From Candidatus Scalindua sp. (GTDB taxonomy: Bacteria > Planctomycetota > Brocadiia > Brocadiales > Scalinduaceae), in assembly GCA_031316235.1 (NCBI GenBank), contig JALDRA010000001.1, positions 3,660,001-3,692,000 on the forward strand: a DNA stretch of 32,000 nucleotides, in the 5' to 3' direction. Position 1 is the stretch's first letter. The number at the start of each line of letters is the position of its first letter. The translations under genes and the position numbers were made by a program. This document shows, in pieces, positions 3,323 to 28,905 of the stretch. Under the pieces are notes generated by a model that was given only the letters and a program-made list of their open reading frames with translations, searched no databases and had not been told where the DNA came from.

Positions 3323-3576
3323 AAGCTAACTGCTCACCTGCTTCCCACAAGTTTCAGGTTGGTATCTGATTTTGATTTGATTCCAGACCACAGGAGAGGG
3401 TTATTACAGCAAGCTGTACCGACATACTATTGCGTTCAAAGAGGCTATGTGGTAAAATAAAGGCGTTTTGAATCAATGGGATAGGCAGTTATCTGTACAA
3501 AATAATGTAGAAAAAAGCAACAATTCGTCTTTTTTTTTGCTTGATTACTGCATTGAGGCAAAATCAGAGAATTGAA

Positions 3577-3690
3577 GTATACTAAAACCGATTTGGTTTT
3601 CGGTTTTACTGGAAACCAAATCTTGGTGAAGGTACACTCGCTCAATTTTATCTCGGATTTTATCCGGAAACCATTATAAGATGAGCATAA
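3577..3690 (+). repeat. Intergenic structured repeat, copy A (module 1 + decayed module 2)
   Basis: GTATAC at 3577-3582. Module 1 carries a perfect 10-bp stem, GATTTGGTTT (3590-3599) pairing with AAACCAAATC (3613-3622). The central hexamer is degenerate (GTACAC 3632-3637) and the right end is degenerate (GCATAA 3685-3690). Homologous to copies B-E. Boundaries are approximate. Confidence 0.85.
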
Positions 3691-3962
3691 TCCATTCAAC
3701 AAAAATTTACACCTTTCAAGTTACCATTTTTCTATCACGGTAAAAAAATAGAACAGCTACTCTTAAATCATACCAGCTGTTTGACGTTAAAGTTTGAACG
3801 TAAAATCGATCTCGCATGACGATTCCTGATTACCTTGACATTGAAGGTAGCAGCCCTGTCCTTTGTATTGCATTATTGTGCACAGGTTAAATCCTGCGAC
3901 TACCTCCTTATGTCATCTCATCATATTATGGGGTTACACTACCGGGTTTATTTGAAACTTAT

Positions 3963-3978
3963 CGGCATGCTAATTGCC
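3963..3978 (+). promoter_or_regulatory. Candidate sigma-54 (-24/-12) promoter
   Basis: cGGCATGctaaTTGCc has GG (3964-3965) and GC (3976-3977) separated by exactly 10 nt, a close match to TGGCACG-N4-TTGCW. It lies about 80 nt upstream of the HTH gene and EPS genes, and a sigma-54 activator is encoded 1.5 kb upstream. Confidence 0.5.
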
Positions 3979-4057
3979 TATATATCAGTGCCATAGATGT
4001 TCTCTGTCTAACCATGACAGTCAATAGGTAATCAATTCCAATAAACAGGTGAATTTC

Positions 4058-4310: not shown

Positions 4311-5777
4311 ATGGAAGAAAAAAAAACACCATTTGATTATCATAAATTTATGCAGCTGCTTTTAAGGAAAAAGTGGTTATTGATTATCCCGACTATCCTG
4401 TTTTGTTCAGGAGCGGTCTTTTTTGCGTATCAGAAACCAGAAGTTTATGAGTCAAAGTGTGTGCTTATAGTAGAAAATTCTAAGGTATTGAGTAATGTAT
4501 TATCTGAGCGGAATGTACAATTGGATGCCGGTCAGTTACTCCAGGCAGTGAGAGAAAGAATGCTTGGCTGGCAATCAGTAACGAAAGTTGTTAAGGACGT
4601 GGGACTTGTTGATGGATTAGAGACTGATGATATGGGTGCGTTGGAAAAAGTCTACCGCACAATTCTCAAGAAAATAAACCTGCGTACAAAAAGTCATGAT
4701 TTTATAGAGATCTCTTATTGTGGAACAAATCCTGAAATAAATTTTGGAGTAGTAAACGGATTGGTTTCAAACTTCATGGAACAGAGTTTGAAATCTTCAA
4801 GAAGTGAGGCACGGGATACATTAGAGTTTATCGAGGAAGATTTAGAACGGCTGAAAGGGGTACTCGATAACTCTGAACGGAAGTTTCGGATGTTTGAAGA
4901 GGAGCATATTAATGATTTGCCTGGGAATGAAAATAGTGTTTTACCAAAGTTTTATACTGCGAAAAGTGAACTGGCCGGGGTCAATAGCGATATAGTGGCC
5001 ATTGAAGAGAAATTGAAATTTTTAGAGAATCGAAAATCGGCTGAAAATGAAAAAATAACAGGTGAAATAATTCAAATCCCTAACCCAAAAGTGGAAGAGC
5101 TGAATGAGCAGATAACAAACCTGGAAATAGAAATAACAATGTTACAATCAAAGTATTATGATGAACATCCGCGTATTGTACAGAAGCAGAATGAGCTCAC
5201 CTACTTAAAAAAACTGCTGCAGGAGGAATCGAAAGTGGTTGTTACTGAGGAAAAGATTGTAAACAACCCACGGTATGAAAGCATGGTAGAGAAAGATTTC
5301 AATTTAAGGCTTGAGTTGAGTTCTTTGAAGAGTCATCGGAAAGAAATTGAACATACACTGGATAATTTTAGACCATCTGTTGAAAATATACCGGAACTCA
5401 AACAGAAACTTTTTGAATTACAGATGGATTATGAAATTAACAAAAAACTCTATGAACAGCGGCTTATGCAAAAATCCAAGGCTGAATTGGTTCAAGAGAT
5501 GTCACTTGATTCAAAGAGTAATCCCTTTAATATAGTTGAGCCCGCCAGAATTTCTTATGAACCTCTAAAAGGTCATAAGATAAAAATAATTGTGATGGGA
5601 ACTATCCTGGGAATTGGTCTAGGGGTAGGTCTGATTTTTGGTTTAGAACAGATTGATACAAGATTTAAGAGTATAGAAGAGATGCAGGAATATTTAAATA
5701 TTCCTGCTGTCGGGATGATACCAACTATCGTTATCCAGTCTGATATGAGCAGGAAGATTGAGAGAGCGCGATTCTGA
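4311..5777 (+). CDS. Polysaccharide chain-length determinant (Wzz/GumC family, PEP-CTERM-locus type)
   Basis: N-terminal Wzz motif with a TM helix (LLRKKWLLIIPTILFCSGAVFFAY), a long coiled-coil periplasmic region, and a C-terminal TM helix (IIVMGTILGIGLGVGLIFGL). Confidence 0.85.
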   Translation: MEEKKTPFDYHKFMQLLLRKKWLLIIPTILFCSGAVFFAYQKPEVYESKCVLIVENSKVLSNVLSERNVQLDAGQLLQAVRERMLGWQSVTKVVKDVGLVDGLETDDMGALEKVYRTILKKINLRTKSHDFIEISYCGTNPEINFGVVNGLVSNFMEQSLKSSRSEARDTLEFIEEDLERLKGVLDNSERKFRMFEEEHINDLPGNENSVLPKFYTAKSELAGVNSDIVAIEEKLKFLENRKSAENEKITGEIIQIPNPKVEELNEQITNLEIEITMLQSKYYDEHPRIVQKQNELTYLKKLLQEESKVVVTEEKIVNNPRYESMVEKDFNLRLELSSLKSHRKEIEHTLDNFRPSVENIPELKQKLFELQMDYEINKKLYEQRLMQKSKAELVQEMSLDSKSNPFNIVEPARISYEPLKGHKIKIIVMGTILGIGLGVGLIFGLEQIDTRFKSIEEMQEYLNIPAVGMIPTIVIQSDMSRKIERARF

Positions 5778-14771: not shown

Positions 14772-14869
14772 GTGATACTGTTATTTTTAAACCGCTTTGG
14801 TTTTAGATTCTTCTACAAACCAAAGCCTGGTTTCCGGTAAAACCGAAAACCAAATCGGTTTTAGTATAC
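14772..14869. repeat. Intergenic structured repeat, copy B (head-to-head composite of two module-1 variants)
   Basis: The left half (+) resembles copy E module 1 and has a perfect stem, GCTTTGGTTT (14794-14803) pairing with AAACCAAAGC (14817-14826). The right half (14829-14869) is the reverse complement of copy A module 1, 40/41 identical, ending in GTATAC (14864-14869). Confidence 0.8.
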
Positions 14870-18514: not shown

Positions 18515-19570
18515 TTATGACTGTAAAGACTCTATCTCTTCAAGCAGTGTGGAAACCATCTCGCTTTCAGGAATTTTTCGTATTTTTTCTCCTTTTCGAA
18601 ACAGAAAACCAAACCCGTTTCCTCCAGCAATCCCGATATCTGCGTCCATTGCCTCTCCCGGACCATTAACAACGCAACCCATAACGGCAATTTGCATAGA
18701 TTGCTTATTTGATGGAAGACGTCTTTTTACTTCGTCAACAATCTTCACGAGATCTATTTCACAACGTCCACACGTAGGACATGATAGAATTTCAGCTTGG
18801 TTACTTTTCGCCAGACCGATGGCCCTCAATATCTTATATCCATCTATTACTTCTTGATGCGGAGAGCCTGTGTATGATACTCTTAGCGTATCACCAATCC
18901 CTTCTGAAAGAAGTCCTCCAATGCCAACTGCTGATTTTATGACGGCGTCTTCAGGAGCGCCTGCAGCTGTTACACCGAGATGCAAAGGATAATCACATTG
19001 CCCCGCTATAGATCGATATGCCTGCATGGTCTTTTGGACATCCGATGCCTTCAGAGAAATTATAATATCTTTAAAGCCTAATGATTCAAAATGTTCACAA
19101 TATCGTAATGTTGTATTAACCATTAATTCGACCAGATCTGCCCCCTCTTCTCTCTGGTCTCTGATTGAACCTGAATTAACACCTATTCGAATAGGTGTTC
19201 GTTTCTTTTTTGCCAAACGCACAATTTCTTCCAGCTTATCCTTTTTTTTCATATTTCCAGGGTTGATCCGTATTTTATCAACTCCCTGATTAATTGCTTC
19301 CAGGGCAAGATTGTGTCCAAAATGGATATCTGCAACTAGTGGAATATGGATCCTCTTTTTTATTTCTCCCAGGCACTTGACCGCTTTGATATCTGGTACG
19401 GCAACCCTTATAATATGGCATTTGAGGGTCTCTAATTCATGGATCTGATGTACGGTTGATTCGATATTGTCTGTATGAGTCTTTGCCATTGATTGAATAG
19501 AGACAGGAGCATTTGCACCGATTTCTACTGAACCAACGGAGACTAATCTTGATTTGCGGCGTGTTATCAC
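18515..19570 (-). CDS. ispG: 4-hydroxy-3-methylbut-2-en-1-yl diphosphate synthase (IspG/GcpE)
   Basis: RRKSRLVSVGSVEIGANAPVSIQSM N-terminal block, CPTCGRC cluster motif and GCVVNGPGE. The longest ORF uses TTG 19660 and adds 30 non-conserved residues. GTG 19570 gives a canonical N-terminus. The start remains uncertain. Confidence 0.9.
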   Translation of the reverse strand: MITRRKSRLVSVGSVEIGANAPVSIQSMAKTHTDNIESTVHQIHELETLKCHIIRVAVPDIKAVKCLGEIKKRIHIPLVADIHFGHNLALEAINQGVDKIRINPGNMKKKDKLEEIVRLAKKKRTPIRIGVNSGSIRDQREEGADLVELMVNTTLRYCEHFESLGFKDIIISLKASDVQKTMQAYRSIAGQCDYPLHLGVTAAGAPEDAVIKSAVGIGGLLSEGIGDTLRVSYTGSPHQEVIDGYKILRAIGLAKSNQAEILSCPTCGRCEIDLVKIVDEVKRRLPSNKQSMQIAVMGCVVNGPGEAMDADIGIAGGNGFGFLFRKGEKIRKIPESEMVSTLLEEIESLQS

Positions 19571-19755
19571 GTATTCAAAAACCCTTAAAAGGACTATTCC
19601 GAGAAAATACAAAGATTTACGATTAACGATTATATAGTGCAGATGGTTCCAGTCAAACAAAAATATTTACTGAATTTATTATAACAGTGAGAGATTCTTC
19701 CTCAAGAGATAACAATACAAAAACACTTGACACTTTTGGATCGGTATTTATGATA

Positions 19756-20018
19756 ATATACTGAAAGCGTTTTGGTTTTAGATTTTTCTGAAACCAGAGC
19801 CTGGTTGCTGGTATCCCCGGACAAAAACGCCGAGAACTTTACTCGCTCCGGTTTTTCCCGGATTTTTCCGAAAACCATTGCGGAGTTGAGGAGCAACATT
19901 GAAAATGGATGTCTGTTCAAACTCCTTGTTCGCCCCGTCTGTGGCGGCACAAACCGTTGTTCCTCAACTCCGCATTCGCACCGCCGCAGGCGGGGCGAAT
20001 ATTATGATTAGTATATAC
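19756..20018 (+). repeat. Intergenic structured repeat, copy E (long variant with two extra modules)
   Basis: Left end ATATAC (19756-19761). Module-1 stem GTTTTGGTTT (19769-19778) pairs with AAACCAGAGC (19791-19800). The central hexamer is split by a 26-nt insert (19815-19840). A diverged module 2 is followed by an additional GC-rich module of about 118 nt. Right end GTATATAC (20011-20018). Confidence 0.8.
19880..19997 (+). other. GC-rich module with two interleaved long inverted repeats (candidate structured RNA or switch), nested in copy E
   Basis: Stem 1 pairs 19880-19897 with 19956-19973 (18 bp, one G-T). Stem 2 pairs 19931-19947 with 19981-19997 (17 bp, two G-T). The arms are interleaved in the order S1-5', S2-5', S1-3', S2-3'. 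All non-Watson-Crick positions are G-U compatible on the + strand only. Confidence 0.45.
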
Positions 20019-20078: not shown

Positions 20079-21419
20079 TTGGCTGCACACAGAATTGATA
20101 CCCCTGTTGAAGCTTCAGCTGGAAGTTCCCAATTGCAGGCAGAGGGTGCATCAAGACAGAAAAGGGAACAGAAAAATAAACCGTGGATGAATCCTACTCG
20201 GTTCAGGTGGATTTCTCAGATCATTTTTATGATTGTTGTAATATATATAGGATGTCAGTTCTATTTTTTTGTACGTTACTGTGAAAGTGGTGGTACCACC
20301 ACTTTTTTTTCAAGGCCACCAGGGATAGAGGCCTTTTTACCCATAGGTGCCTTTATGAGTCTCAAGTATTTCTTAGGGATGGGGAAAGTTGATCCTGTAC
20401 ATCCTGCGGGTTTTATAATCTTTGCCTCGATATTACTTACATCATTCATGTTTCAAAGGGGTTTCTGCAGCTGGATATGTCCGGTAGGCACCATATCTGA
20501 ATGGGCATGGAGATTGGGAGATCGGATAAAATCAAAATTCAATAAGACCGTCAGGTATTGGATCGAGATGTTTCCGGTTAAACTCACATGCGGTTTAAGC
20601 ATGATAACAACTCCTATCATCATATTGATGATCCTTGAAGTTATCAGCTTCAGCTCTTTCAAATCTCTTTACATCACCTCTCACACTTTATTTTATGTCA
20701 TGATCTCTTTTATGGGTATAGCCCTGATCGCACCCTTTGCTCTTCCAAGGAAACTATGGCCGGCCCGCCTTGAAGATTCTATTGCACGAGCCTGGAAATA
20801 TTCTATTTTCGCTTTTTTCGCAGTCTCTATTTTAATCAAGATACCGGCAAAACAGCTTGAGGCTATCTTTACTCGTGCACCATACATGAAGGTTGCAGAG
20901 GTTATGATGTTAAATTTTTTCCGTAACCTTTCACTGCTTGCCATAATCGTCTTGTCACTACTTTTTCTCTTTACTCTATTCAATAAGAATTACTGGTGCC
21001 GTTATTTTTGTCCTTATGGTGCAATCGTCGGTGTCCTGGGGTGGGCGAGTTCTTTTAGAATTGTAAGAGACAGTAAATTGTGTATAGATTGTGGTAAGTG
21101 TACAAAGGCGTGTCCTGTTTTTATTGAGGTTGACAAGAAGCGGACTGTATATAGCCAGGAGTGTTGGGCCTGTTACGACTGCGTTGAGGTATGTCCGGTA
21201 AGCGGTGCTCTTGATATGAAGATTGTGGGGATTGGTAAGAAGGTGCACTATGCTGTTTACGCAGCTCTTTCAGTTGGGTTATTCGTTATTTTTATGAATA
21301 CGGCACGTTTTACCGGATATTGGTATAATAGTGTAACGTTAGACGAATACATGTACCGGATTTCCGAAATCGATGACCCGAAGTATAAACATAAGCAGGG
21401 GAAATTTGAAATTGAATAA
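20079..21419 (+). CDS. Integral-membrane polyferredoxin (NapH/MauN/NosH-like, 2x CX3CP + 2x [4Fe-4S] motifs)
   Basis: CSWICPVG and CRYFCPYG motifs, several TM helices, and C-terminal CIDCGKCTKACP and CWACYDCVEVCP. TTG 20079 lies 7 nt after GGAG (20068-20071). An alternative start is ATG 20187. Confidence 0.8.
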   Translation: MAAHRIDTPVEASAGSSQLQAEGASRQKREQKNKPWMNPTRFRWISQIIFMIVVIYIGCQFYFFVRYCESGGTTTFFSRPPGIEAFLPIGAFMSLKYFLGMGKVDPVHPAGFIIFASILLTSFMFQRGFCSWICPVGTISEWAWRLGDRIKSKFNKTVRYWIEMFPVKLTCGLSMITTPIIILMILEVISFSSFKSLYITSHTLFYVMISFMGIALIAPFALPRKLWPARLEDSIARAWKYSIFAFFAVSILIKIPAKQLEAIFTRAPYMKVAEVMMLNFFRNLSLLAIIVLSLLFLFTLFNKNYWCRYFCPYGAIVGVLGWASSFRIVRDSKLCIDCGKCTKACPVFIEVDKKRTVYSQECWACYDCVEVCPVSGALDMKIVGIGKKVHYAVYAALSVGLFVIFMNTARFTGYWYNSVTLDEYMYRISEIDDPKYKHKQGKFEIE

Positions 21420-21732
21420 TCCATTTCATAATTTTTGTTATTGGTATTGCAGATGAACCTGTTAAGGAAATTGCAGATAATGTTCATATCCTGACTGAAA
21501 ATGCAGATGTTATACGCGGAAATTGGATATCGATTGTCACAAATACGGCAATCCATATTTCCCTGATTGCCGAAGAGATTCCTTCCCGGAAACAGCATGA
21601 AAGATATGTTGGGTTCTACATAAACAGCAGGGCGGTAACCGAAAGAGCCATAGGGATTTTGAGAAGTAATAATGTGTTGAGCCGTGAAATAGCATTTGGC
21701 AAACAAACTTTTTTTGACATCTAATGCATTAA

Positions 21733-22431: not shown

Positions 22432-22628
22432 ATAGATGCTTCCCTTGAATGTGGGTAAATTACCCGCTCCGCTCCCTGGAGATTTAATCCGGTCTATTAC
22501 GTGCAGTGACGCAGTTTGGTAGTTTCTGTTCTCCAACCAGGTAGTGTCTTCTATGGAATTATCTGGGATTTATGCCTTCAACTGTTTTTTTCTCTTGAAC
22601 GCAGCACAATATCCATCAGACTTTTACC

Positions 22629-22657
22629 TTGACATAACGTCGTGTTATCTTTAAGAT
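22629..22657 (+). promoter_or_regulatory. Candidate sigma-70 promoter (TTGACA-17 nt-TAAGAT)
   Basis: TTGACA at 22629-22634, an exact 17-nt spacer, then TAAGAT at 22652-22657. It sits about 290 nt upstream of the hflK start, inside a 519-bp stretch with no credible ORF. Confidence 0.3.
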
Positions 22658-22950
22658 CCGTAAAAGAAACGGAGGATGCTTTGCGAGGGATTTATAAAGT
22701 ATTCCTTAATAAGGCCTGTTTTTATATGCATGCTGGTAAAATAAACATTGAAGTACCGCTGTCAATCTGTTATAGTGAATAGCGTCCAATCGAAGCGGAC
22801 TCAGGTTTTATGGGTGAGAGTAAGGGATAGACATCTACTGTTGGCTTGAACAGGCGCAAGGGGCATCGGGAGCATGATGAATTTGGGTAAAGAGAGGCAG
22901 ATGTATTTATTATTACTTACCTTTGTTTTTGAAGTATAACTGCAATTATT

Positions 22951-27295: not shown

Positions 27296-27435
27296 GTATA
27301 CTCATCTCATACTGGATTTCGGATAAAATCCGAGATAAAATTGAGCGAGTAAAGTCCTCGGCGCTTTTTGTCCGGGGATACCTTCACCAGGATTTGGTTT
27401 CCGGTAAAACCAAAAACCAAATCGGTTTTCGTATA
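27296..27435 (-). repeat. Intergenic structured repeat, copy C (full length, with 27-nt insert) between exbB and exbD
   Basis: GTATAC at 27296-27301. Module 2 (27296-27350) is 55/55 identical to copy D in inverted orientation. A 27-nt insert (27351-27377) splits the central GTATAC. Module 1 carries the stem 27391-27400 pairing with 27414-27423. The end is GTATA (27431-27435). Confidence 0.9.
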
Positions 27436-27549
27436 ATTCTTTTTCGTTTCACACGAAAGAGTGATTTTTGACCATACGAGGTAAGAAGATGGCACGCGAG
27501 AGTATTTTCTATAAAAAATATTAGTTTAACCCTTTTACATGGAATTAAT

Positions 27550-28825: not shown

Positions 28826-28905
28826 ATATACCAAATCTTGGTGAAGGTATACTCGCTCAATTTTATCTCGGATTTTATCCGAAATCCAGTATGAGATGAG
28901 TATAC
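28826..28905 (+). repeat. Intergenic structured repeat, copy D (module 1 internally deleted, module 2 intact)
   Basis: ATATAC (28826-28831), then CAAATCTTGGTGAAG, GTATAC (28847-28852), module 2, and GTATAC (28900-28905). Identical to the reverse complement of copy C over 12 + 55 nt. Confidence 0.9.

Follow-up and report, generated by a model that had tools for sequence, protein, structure and literature searches.

Hairpin-rich intergenic repeats of a Candidatus Scalindua chromosome very probably belong to a family of miniature transposons that inserts at TA

What are the short, hairpin-rich repeats that occupy five intergenic regions in a 32,000-bp stretch of a Candidatus Scalindua chromosome (GenBank assembly GCA_031316235.1, contig JALDRA010000001.1, positions 3,660,001 to 3,692,000; this whole stretch is called the window below and its first base is position 1)? 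A first-pass annotation, made from the sequence alone, had described five copies (A to E) of a two-module element and had proposed three explanations for them: a miniature inverted-repeat transposable element (MITE), a mosaic of palindromic units like the repetitive extragenic palindromes (REPs) and bacterial interspersed mosaic elements (BIMEs), or a dispersed family of structured RNAs. Our analysis strongly supports the first, while the argument from RNA structure and covariation did not hold. We conclude with high confidence that the five loci are copies of a family of non-autonomous DNA transposons (MITEs) in Ca. Scalindua/Scalinduaceae. Bacterial MITEs are defined by their small size, terminal inverted repeats, terminal TA and target-site duplication (Delihas review, PMC2229807). 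The Scalindua element is placed among them because it inserts at TA with a 2-bp duplication, has terminal inverted repeats, is non-coding, occurs in many copies with a bias towards intergenic DNA and is polymorphic in its sites of insertion.

The five loci are real and share the modules originally described, as seen in their sequences, in an unbiased repeat scan and in profile searches with nhmmer. In the repeat scan they ranked first among the inverted and direct repeat families of the window (I1-I7, D1, D2 and D4), and copy A is a full-length nhmmer match (E=5e-31). Their exact limits were refined to those given in Table 1. Copy A and the reversed part of copy B are identical at 40 of 41 positions, as first noted; copies C and D share 56 identical terminal nucleotides (repeat I2) instead of the 67 first counted. 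All five copies lie between genes, and the open reading frames (ORFs) that cross them are short and either antisense to real genes or overlapping them. Pfam annotation of the whole window confirmed that no transposase is encoded there.

Alignment of 129 full copies together with their flanks shows an element that is sharply bounded within unconserved, AT-rich DNA. Its ends are TATACT...AGTATA in about 116-118 of 119 copies (~97%). The element proper is TACT...AGTA, set in a duplicated TA, so that copies read TA-TACT...AGTA-TA. Natural empty sites demonstrate this directly, since some copies lie inside other repeat families or in DNA that is orthologous between metagenome-assembled genomes (MAGs). 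One such host repeat reads ...CGCGCCTTG-TA-CCTGGGC... when empty and ...CTTTG-TA[TACT...AGTA]TA-CCTGGGC... when filled (copies e82, e109 and e121). A single TA in the empty site, against a TA on both sides of the element in the filled one, is also seen at e104 (SCAELEC01 vs CBDCUS), e126 (SCAELEC01 vs RBC_AMX3) and e11; at e81 and e13, which are more diverged, paralogous comparisons, the aligned empty dinucleotide is TG or AA.

The intergenic regions of the window had no useful orthologues among the 117 loci retrieved by a search pattern (see below), and syntenic regions of relatives were fetched through their ExbB homologues, which are 94% (L124), 90% (L125), 81% (L121, Ca. S. japonica) and 78% (L122) identical to the protein of the window. 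Site D is empty in L124, where GAACCGA-TA-CTATTTTATGA corresponds to GAACCGA-TA[TACC...GAGTA]TA-CAATTATATGA in the window. At site C, exbB and exbD are 256 nt apart in the window, where the spacer holds a 139-nt element, compared with 12 nt in L122 and 2 nt in Ca. S. japonica; this spacer contains no MITE in L119/L124 or L120/L125. Site E is empty in the relatives as well: the spacer between gcpE and the gene of a Fer4-domain protein is 250 nt long in L124 and 263 nt in L125, compared with ~508 nt in the window, and its flanks are conserved up to the point of insertion. Among the genomes compared, that of the window alone has the element at sites C, D and E, and L125 carries insertions of its own in the exbD-mazG and dxr-gcpE intervals. 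These comparisons show that the element inserts at TA with a 2-bp duplication and that it has been active since these species diverged.

The family is large. A scan with a 25-nt pattern from module 1, covering one genome per species, matched at least 117 stretches of 8 kb, so the further copies that the first-pass annotation had proposed looking for do exist. Among the matches listed, all fall in four Ca. Scalindua/Scalinduaceae MAGs: 64 stretches in RBC_AMX3, 34 in SCAELEC01, 18 in CBDCUS and one in CAVPVY. Iterative nhmmer on 0.95 Mb of retrieved loci gave 186 matches, 137 of which span the whole ~140-nt model. Intergenic position is a property of the family and not of the window alone, as 138 of 147 complete copies (94%) lie between genes, against ~72% of coding sequence. 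The scaffold has diverged by ~6%, within and between genomes alike, and copies cluster only weakly by genome; the family itself is older than the species. No element was matched in a viral contig collection. In the literature searched we came across no account of MITEs or intergenic repeats from Scalindua, in line with the initial impression that this was not a described family.

The scaffold is made up of four conserved segments, S1 (TATACTAAAACCGATTTGGTTTTCGGTTTTA), S2 (GGAAACCAAATCTTGGT), S3 (ACTCGCTCAATTTTATCTCGGATTTTA) and S4 (CCGAAAACCATTATGAGATGAGTATA), with three variable sites, V1-V3, between them. The two modules first recognised do exist, but the element contains more of them, namely a 27-nt hairpin at V2 and a set of nested GC-rich hairpins. 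Among 178 regions, 125 have the arrangement S1-S2-S3-S4 and 14 have S1-S4, the remainder being truncated or composite. Elements range from 57 to ~245 nt and are non-coding. The symmetric 57-nt form (TATACTAAAACCGATTTGGTTT-TCGGTTTTACTGG-AAACCAAATCGGTTTTAGTATA, in L048 and L049) has perfect 22-nt terminal inverted repeats, and the 10-bp stem to which the first-pass annotation drew attention (GATTTGGTTT/AAACCAAATC) is the inner half of this repeat. The common two-module form is ~112 nt long, or ~139 nt with the V2 hairpin (CCCCGGACAAAAGGCGCCGAGGACTTT; present zero, one or rarely two times) between the modules. Its outer ends share TACT as well as TGGTTTTCGG at positions 15-24. The terminal sequences for comparison with the ends of transposase genes are TACTAAAACCGATTTGGTTTTCGG and TACTCATCTCATAATGGTTTTCGG.

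V1 and V3 correspond to the hairpin loops of the two modules and are either empty or filled with GC-rich hairpin units of 25-33 nt. One of these, hpA (CCTGTCTGCGTGC..GCACAGGCAGG), is found at both V1 and V3, and another, hpB (CCCGTCCGAACGGCTGACAGGCCGGGCGGG), at V1. The units are also nested, hpC within hpB, reverse-complemented hpB within hpC and hpD nested again, which produces the elements of up to ~245 nt. They sit after TTTTA or in hairpin loops, in either orientation and without obvious duplication. Such nesting in both orientations fits mobile or recombining DNA, unlike RNA expansion segments. Truncated and composite copies (B, D and the S1-hpA-S4 form) are best explained by recombination or deletion between repeated modules; the S1-hpA-S4 form would be expected to remain after a deletion whose endpoints were the hpA copy at V1 and that at V3. 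For the junctions of module 1, V2 and module 2 we considered serial TA insertions and excision footprints; the assignment of the TA is ambiguous there, and we make no claim.

Units similar to hpA and hpB are not confined to the scaffold; some lie within a different repeat family. By estimated totals, hpA is present 38 times in ~25 kb of MITE sequence and ~7 times in ~1 Mb outside it, where an estimated ~1 would be expected. The occurrence of hairpins at no fewer than two scaffold sites and at ~6 places outside suggests that they may move independently, and their spread could largely be due to hitch-hiking on the MITE. It is conceivable, if on balance doubtful, that hpA to hpD and a 124-nt module found in copy E are themselves independent, ultra-small mobile DNAs that insert recursively, without target duplication and in either orientation, into hairpin loops and often after TTTTA, with the TA-MITE as their preferred landing pad and vehicle. 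Were this so, they would move by a single-strand or hairpin-targeting mechanism (HUH-type or template-switch) that is undescribed in Planctomycetota.

The MITE itself inserts into one TA dinucleotide, which ends up duplicated on both sides, and would depend for this on a transposase supplied in trans. Its strict TA target and 2-bp duplication, together with the precedent of the RUP element, which has been linked to IS630-Spn1 through similar inverted repeats and a TA target (PMC2229807), point tentatively to a DDE enzyme of the IS630/Tc1-mariner type. The hairpins would be a by-product of inverted-repeat DNA rather than a selected RNA fold, and effects on neighbouring genes, for example at copies C and E, would be side effects of the landing place.

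Several observations weigh against this reading. The first-pass annotation had suggested searching for an autonomous insertion sequence (IS) with the same termini, and none turned up in the window, in the 1.03 Mb of Scalindua DNA examined or in one targeted metagenome scan. Inverted TATAC...GTATA pairs 0.6-3.5 kb apart are only pairs of MITEs around ordinary genes; a six-frame search for the IS630/Tc1 motif (YSPxLNPIE-type) gave no match in the 1.03 Mb; and the metagenome scan, which required a non-MITE (non-T) base directly after the left end, returned two matches that are both ordinary MITE variants. A TA duplication by itself makes any assignment to a transposase family tentative, and some elements of the IS5 family (IS427 group) also give 2-bp TA duplications. 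The sample of the family is biased, its loci having been fetched by the module-1 pattern. In the common form, no more than 17 of 24 positions agree between the left and right ends. Finally, copy D and a similar copy in L079 have both lost most of the left end, yet lie at different loci, a pattern that calls for recurrent deletion or for mobilisation through the ends of module 2 itself. A megablast self-comparison of the loci revealed no IS-like repeat common to many of them. It is possible that an autonomous partner resides elsewhere in the Scalindua genomes.

Several other repeats were encountered in the retrieved loci. A sister repeat with ends TATACCCATCACAAATTGGTTTTC (L059:390-450 and 2480-2506; L069:3264-3290; L009:2545-2570) shares TATAC and the subterminal TGGTTTTC with the right end of the MITE and, judging from this likeness, could be another family that the same transposase mobilises. 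A second, unrelated palindromic family of ~150 nt has the termini TAGTGTTTGAACGAAAAC...GTTTTCGTTTAGACACTA and 44 matches across the loci, none of them in the window (e.g., L090:453-610); it repeatedly hosts TA-MITE insertions at the same TA. A third, AT-rich family (...CAAACAGGGGTTAATAAATTACAAATCTCAATTTACAAA...; 23 matches, e.g., L114:5836-6068 and L058:5813-5985) hosts TA-MITE insertions as well as insertions of hpA just past AATTA. At L104:3250-4950 (RBC_AMX3 contig JALDRB010000017.1) a ~1.6-kb insertion interrupts the V2 hairpin of a MITE copy and encodes an IS110-family transposase (PF01548 DEDD_Tnp_IS110, E=5e-20). The IS110 family is known for targeting palindromic repeats. A transposase of the IS91 family (Y2_Tnp) and a group II intron reverse transcriptase are encoded a few kb downstream of the syntenic region in L125 (16523-17728 and 19018-20256) and are unrelated to the ends of the MITE.

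A quite different view is that the repeats are a dispersed family of structured RNAs (small RNAs, cis-regulatory, terminator or processing elements) whose hairpins are kept by selection for RNA pairing. We consider this very improbable. The 139-nt consensus does fold well on both strands, at -45 and -42 kcal/mol; copy E has a terminator-like hairpin followed by a T-run; and some MITEs are RNase III substrates, to go by the reference list of PMC2229807. The stem changes that had first suggested covariation in module 1 are also present, a compensatory C-G in copy B (GCTTTGG/CCAAAGC) and two G-U pairs in copy E, but the covariation is not supported in larger, unbiased alignments. Module 2 lies outside the search pattern, hence its 88 distinct copies are unbiased; they contain one double change in 1316 cells, a level reached by 344 of 500 shuffles, and its pairs are often broken, with 31 unpaired cells at C8-G44. 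For module 1 the analysis was confined to 26 unbiased copies (by-catch, window, syntenic and metagenome). A single pair shows double changes there, C-G in B and U-G in E, and three other copies are unpaired at that position. The covariation score of 0.058 exceeds the shuffled value of 0.041 (reached by 13 of 500), but slid-partner controls score 0.065-0.071, and plain mismatches are frequent in the stem. This stem is a terminal inverted repeat, so matched changes in its arms are equally expected from constraints at the DNA level.

Other evidence is no kinder to a selected RNA. The strand favoured by pairs of the G-T type differs between hairpins, being minus in V2 and plus in hpB, which implies no single transcribed strand. 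The first-pass annotation had advised examining orientation relative to genes and matches in Rfam. Of the copies flanked by tandem genes, 37 point the same way as the genes and 33 the opposite way, which is no strand preference; further copies lie between divergent (30) and convergent (13) genes. Rfam gave no match at the gathering score, the best at E<=1 reaching 15.7 bits against a gathering score of 43. Scans for promoters and terminators detected no signal intrinsic to typical copies. The TA duplications at empty and filled sites indicate that the element spreads by insertion of DNA.

Just as little probability attaches to a REP/BIME-like mosaic (REPIN-type) moved by a REP-associated tyrosine transposase (RAYT; Y1 HUH), or to a palindromic element derived from IS200/IS605. 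The modular mosaic, with palindromic units in both orientations, is indeed BIME-like; the GC-rich hpA to hpD resemble REPs, being without obvious duplication, in either orientation and often just past TTTTA; and an IS110-family element occupies a V2 hairpin in L104, REPs being known IS targets (Tobes and Pareja 2006, as cited in PMC3116915). The AT-rich scaffold, however, has terminal inverted repeats and a TA duplication that is proven by empty sites, and no Y1 transposase was seen beside the copies inspected, no systematic search having been made. To our knowledge, neither REP/REPIN nor IS200/IS605 elements make target duplications. A REP-like explanation may still apply to the nested GC-rich hairpins, though not to the element that carries them.

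Least likely of all is that GTATAC, which the first-pass annotation had proposed as a recombination or cleavage point, is a functional hexamer where the modules are cut and rejoined, for example by restriction, recombination or a site-specific nuclease: the hexamer is in excess in the window (10 observed vs 3.4 expected), it stands at several module borders of the window copies, and both the V2 insert and the junction of modules 1 and 2 fall at GGTA/TAC, but the outer bases are not conserved (G before the 5' end in 18 of 119 copies, C after the 3' end in 20 of 119), so that GTATAC is TATAC or GTATA plus a chance neighbour and is explained by the duplicated TA followed by terminal TAC/GTA, five of the ten sites in the window are inside genes and unrelated to the element, and none of the GC-rich inserts is at GTATAC.

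As a miniature transposon, the Scalindua element is of an ordinary kind, and by analogy it is best compared to a TA-MITE of the Correia/RUP type with modular length variants like those of ERIC and BOX. The Correia/NEMIS elements of Neisseria and RUP of Streptococcus pneumoniae are ~100-160 bp long and non-coding, with terminal inverted repeats, terminal 5'-TA-3', target-site duplication, long stem-loops and a hundred or more mostly intergenic copies, and Correia has size variants of 107 and 155 bp that differ by an internal segment (PMC2229807). The Scalindua element resembles them in its TATACT/AGTATA ends, in duplicating TA, in having size variants (57, 112 and 139 nt) and in lying between genes in 94% of copies. 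It differs from them in that there is no sequence similarity and that its hosts are anammox bacteria of the phylum Planctomycetota; RUP has a cognate IS, whereas none was identified for the Scalindua element. We know of no description of a two-module build or of multiply nested GC-rich inserts for Correia or RUP. With ERIC/IRU and BOX the element shares a modular construction and discrete length classes that arise from internal blocks at fixed positions (V2 present 0, 1 or 2 times, V1 and V3 optional). A BOX element is built as boxA-boxB(n)-boxC, and in ERIC insertions occur at fixed internal sites. Neither family is related to the Scalindua element in sequence or in host, and the ends and TA duplication of the latter are shown directly by empty sites.

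In its palindromic-unit mosaic, intergenic position and use as a target of IS insertion the element is also like REP/BIME/REPIN, from which it differs in having a scaffold with TA duplication and terminal inverted repeats and no known association with RAYT. For the tiny palindromes of 25-33 nt, nested in repeats and in each other in both orientations against an AT-richer background, there are analogies (but only analogies) in the small dispersed repeats of cyanobacteria and the GC clusters of yeast mitochondria. The former are reportedly tiny and mobile, as described by Elhai and colleagues (2008, cited in PMC3116915), and the latter are very small mobile repeats. We found no description of an element of this ordinary kind in this phylum. 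The nested GC-rich hairpins are the most unusual feature of the Scalindua element.

The insertions have several consequences. Copy C would have put ~140 nt of hairpin-rich DNA between exbB and exbD, two genes that practically adjoin in other Scalindua species, and copy E, just downstream of a strong promoter-like site conserved in the relatives, would join the leader of the Fer4 gene; copies inside operons, such as C, or beside promoters, such as E, may thus modulate expression. Copies also give rise to spurious ORFs, and short-read assemblies of Scalindua become fragmented at the TA-MITE and its sister repeats. One example is the public Logan contig SRR28338161 (1473 nt), which, by arithmetic on gene offsets, starts and ends within copies C and D, where the assembler evidently broke at the repeats. 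Insertion patterns differ among close relatives and are therefore usable as strain or species markers. The family documents active DNA transposition in an uncultured lineage of global importance to the nitrogen cycle, and its recursively nested GC-rich hairpins constitute a natural data set on the spread of very small palindromic repeats.

The window is otherwise an ordinary chromosomal segment. Its Pfam-annotated genes encode a PAS histidine kinase, a sigma-54 activator, Wza/Wzz, a TPR protein, a DUF374 protein, an RseP-like protease, Dxr, GcpE, the Fer4 protein, PIG-L, two Band_7 proteins, TonB-ExbB-ExbD, MazG, a ChaN-like protein and a U32 peptidase. The copies and the features associated with them are listed in Table 1.

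Table 1. Copies of the element in the window and associated features
Feature	Positions	Strand	Description
Copy A	3578-3689	+	No V2 insert; flanking TA included at both ends, 3' end mutated to GCATA; between wza (ends 3322) and wzz (starts 4311)
Copy A, module 1	3578-3634	+	
Copy A, module 2	3635-3689	+	
Copy B	14782-14868		Composite, no single strand; right end 25 nt upstream of DUF374 gene start
Copy B, left part	14782-14832	+	Degenerate module 1, 'TAGATT-loop' subfamily
Copy B, right part	about 14819-14868	-	Standard element, left end only; joined head-to-head with the left part
Promoter-like site	19727-19754	+	TTGACA-16-TATGAT, 11/12 matches; context, outside the element, 2 nt upstream of copy E
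Copy E	19757-20015	+	Diverged full-length element: module 1, V2 and module 2
Secondary insertion in copy E	19880-20003	+	124-nt GC-rich (54%) long hairpin module, right-end segment
Copy C	27297-27435	-	Canonical 139-nt element: module 1, 27-nt V2 hairpin and module 2; E=1e-45; 3 nt past exbB stop codon, within tonB-exbB-exbD cluster
Copy D	28827-28904	+	Internal 5' deletion: TA-TAC, then CAAATCTTGGTGAAGG and module 2; between mazG and chaN-like gene

The secondary insertion in copy E has a fold energy of -55 kcal/mol, and its 3' arm recurs in L063 and L034 (blastn-short). The flank that holds the promoter-like site is conserved in L124 and L125; if this site is functional, copy E would lie in the 5' leader of the Fer4-domain gene, which starts at 20079. 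The mechanical ORF of gcpE on the minus strand (18515-19660, 381 aa, TTG start) exceeds its orthologues (351 and 348 aa) by ~30 codons. Translation probably begins near 19570 instead, and with that start the gcpE-Fer4 spacer measures about 508 nt.

Copies C and D form an inverted pair around exbD-mazG. A composite transposon carrying these two genes was considered and rejected, as the genes are syntenic in all relatives without these MITEs. The exbB-exbD spacer also holds, immediately beyond copy C, a terminator-like hairpin with a T-run after it (27439-27461). A similar hairpin seems to be present in L124, and the two may represent an exbB-exbD attenuator that is independent of the MITE in this clade.

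Gene content also varies between the window and its relatives. In L124 and L125, a DICT-domain protein and an AIRS/AIRS_C protein are encoded among the Fer4, PIG-L and Band_7 genes; the window has short non-coding gaps (21420-21732 and 22432-22950) where L124 has the DICT and AIRS genes (3434-4042 and 4754-5767), a difference pointing to the loss or gain of genes among closely related Scalindua species.

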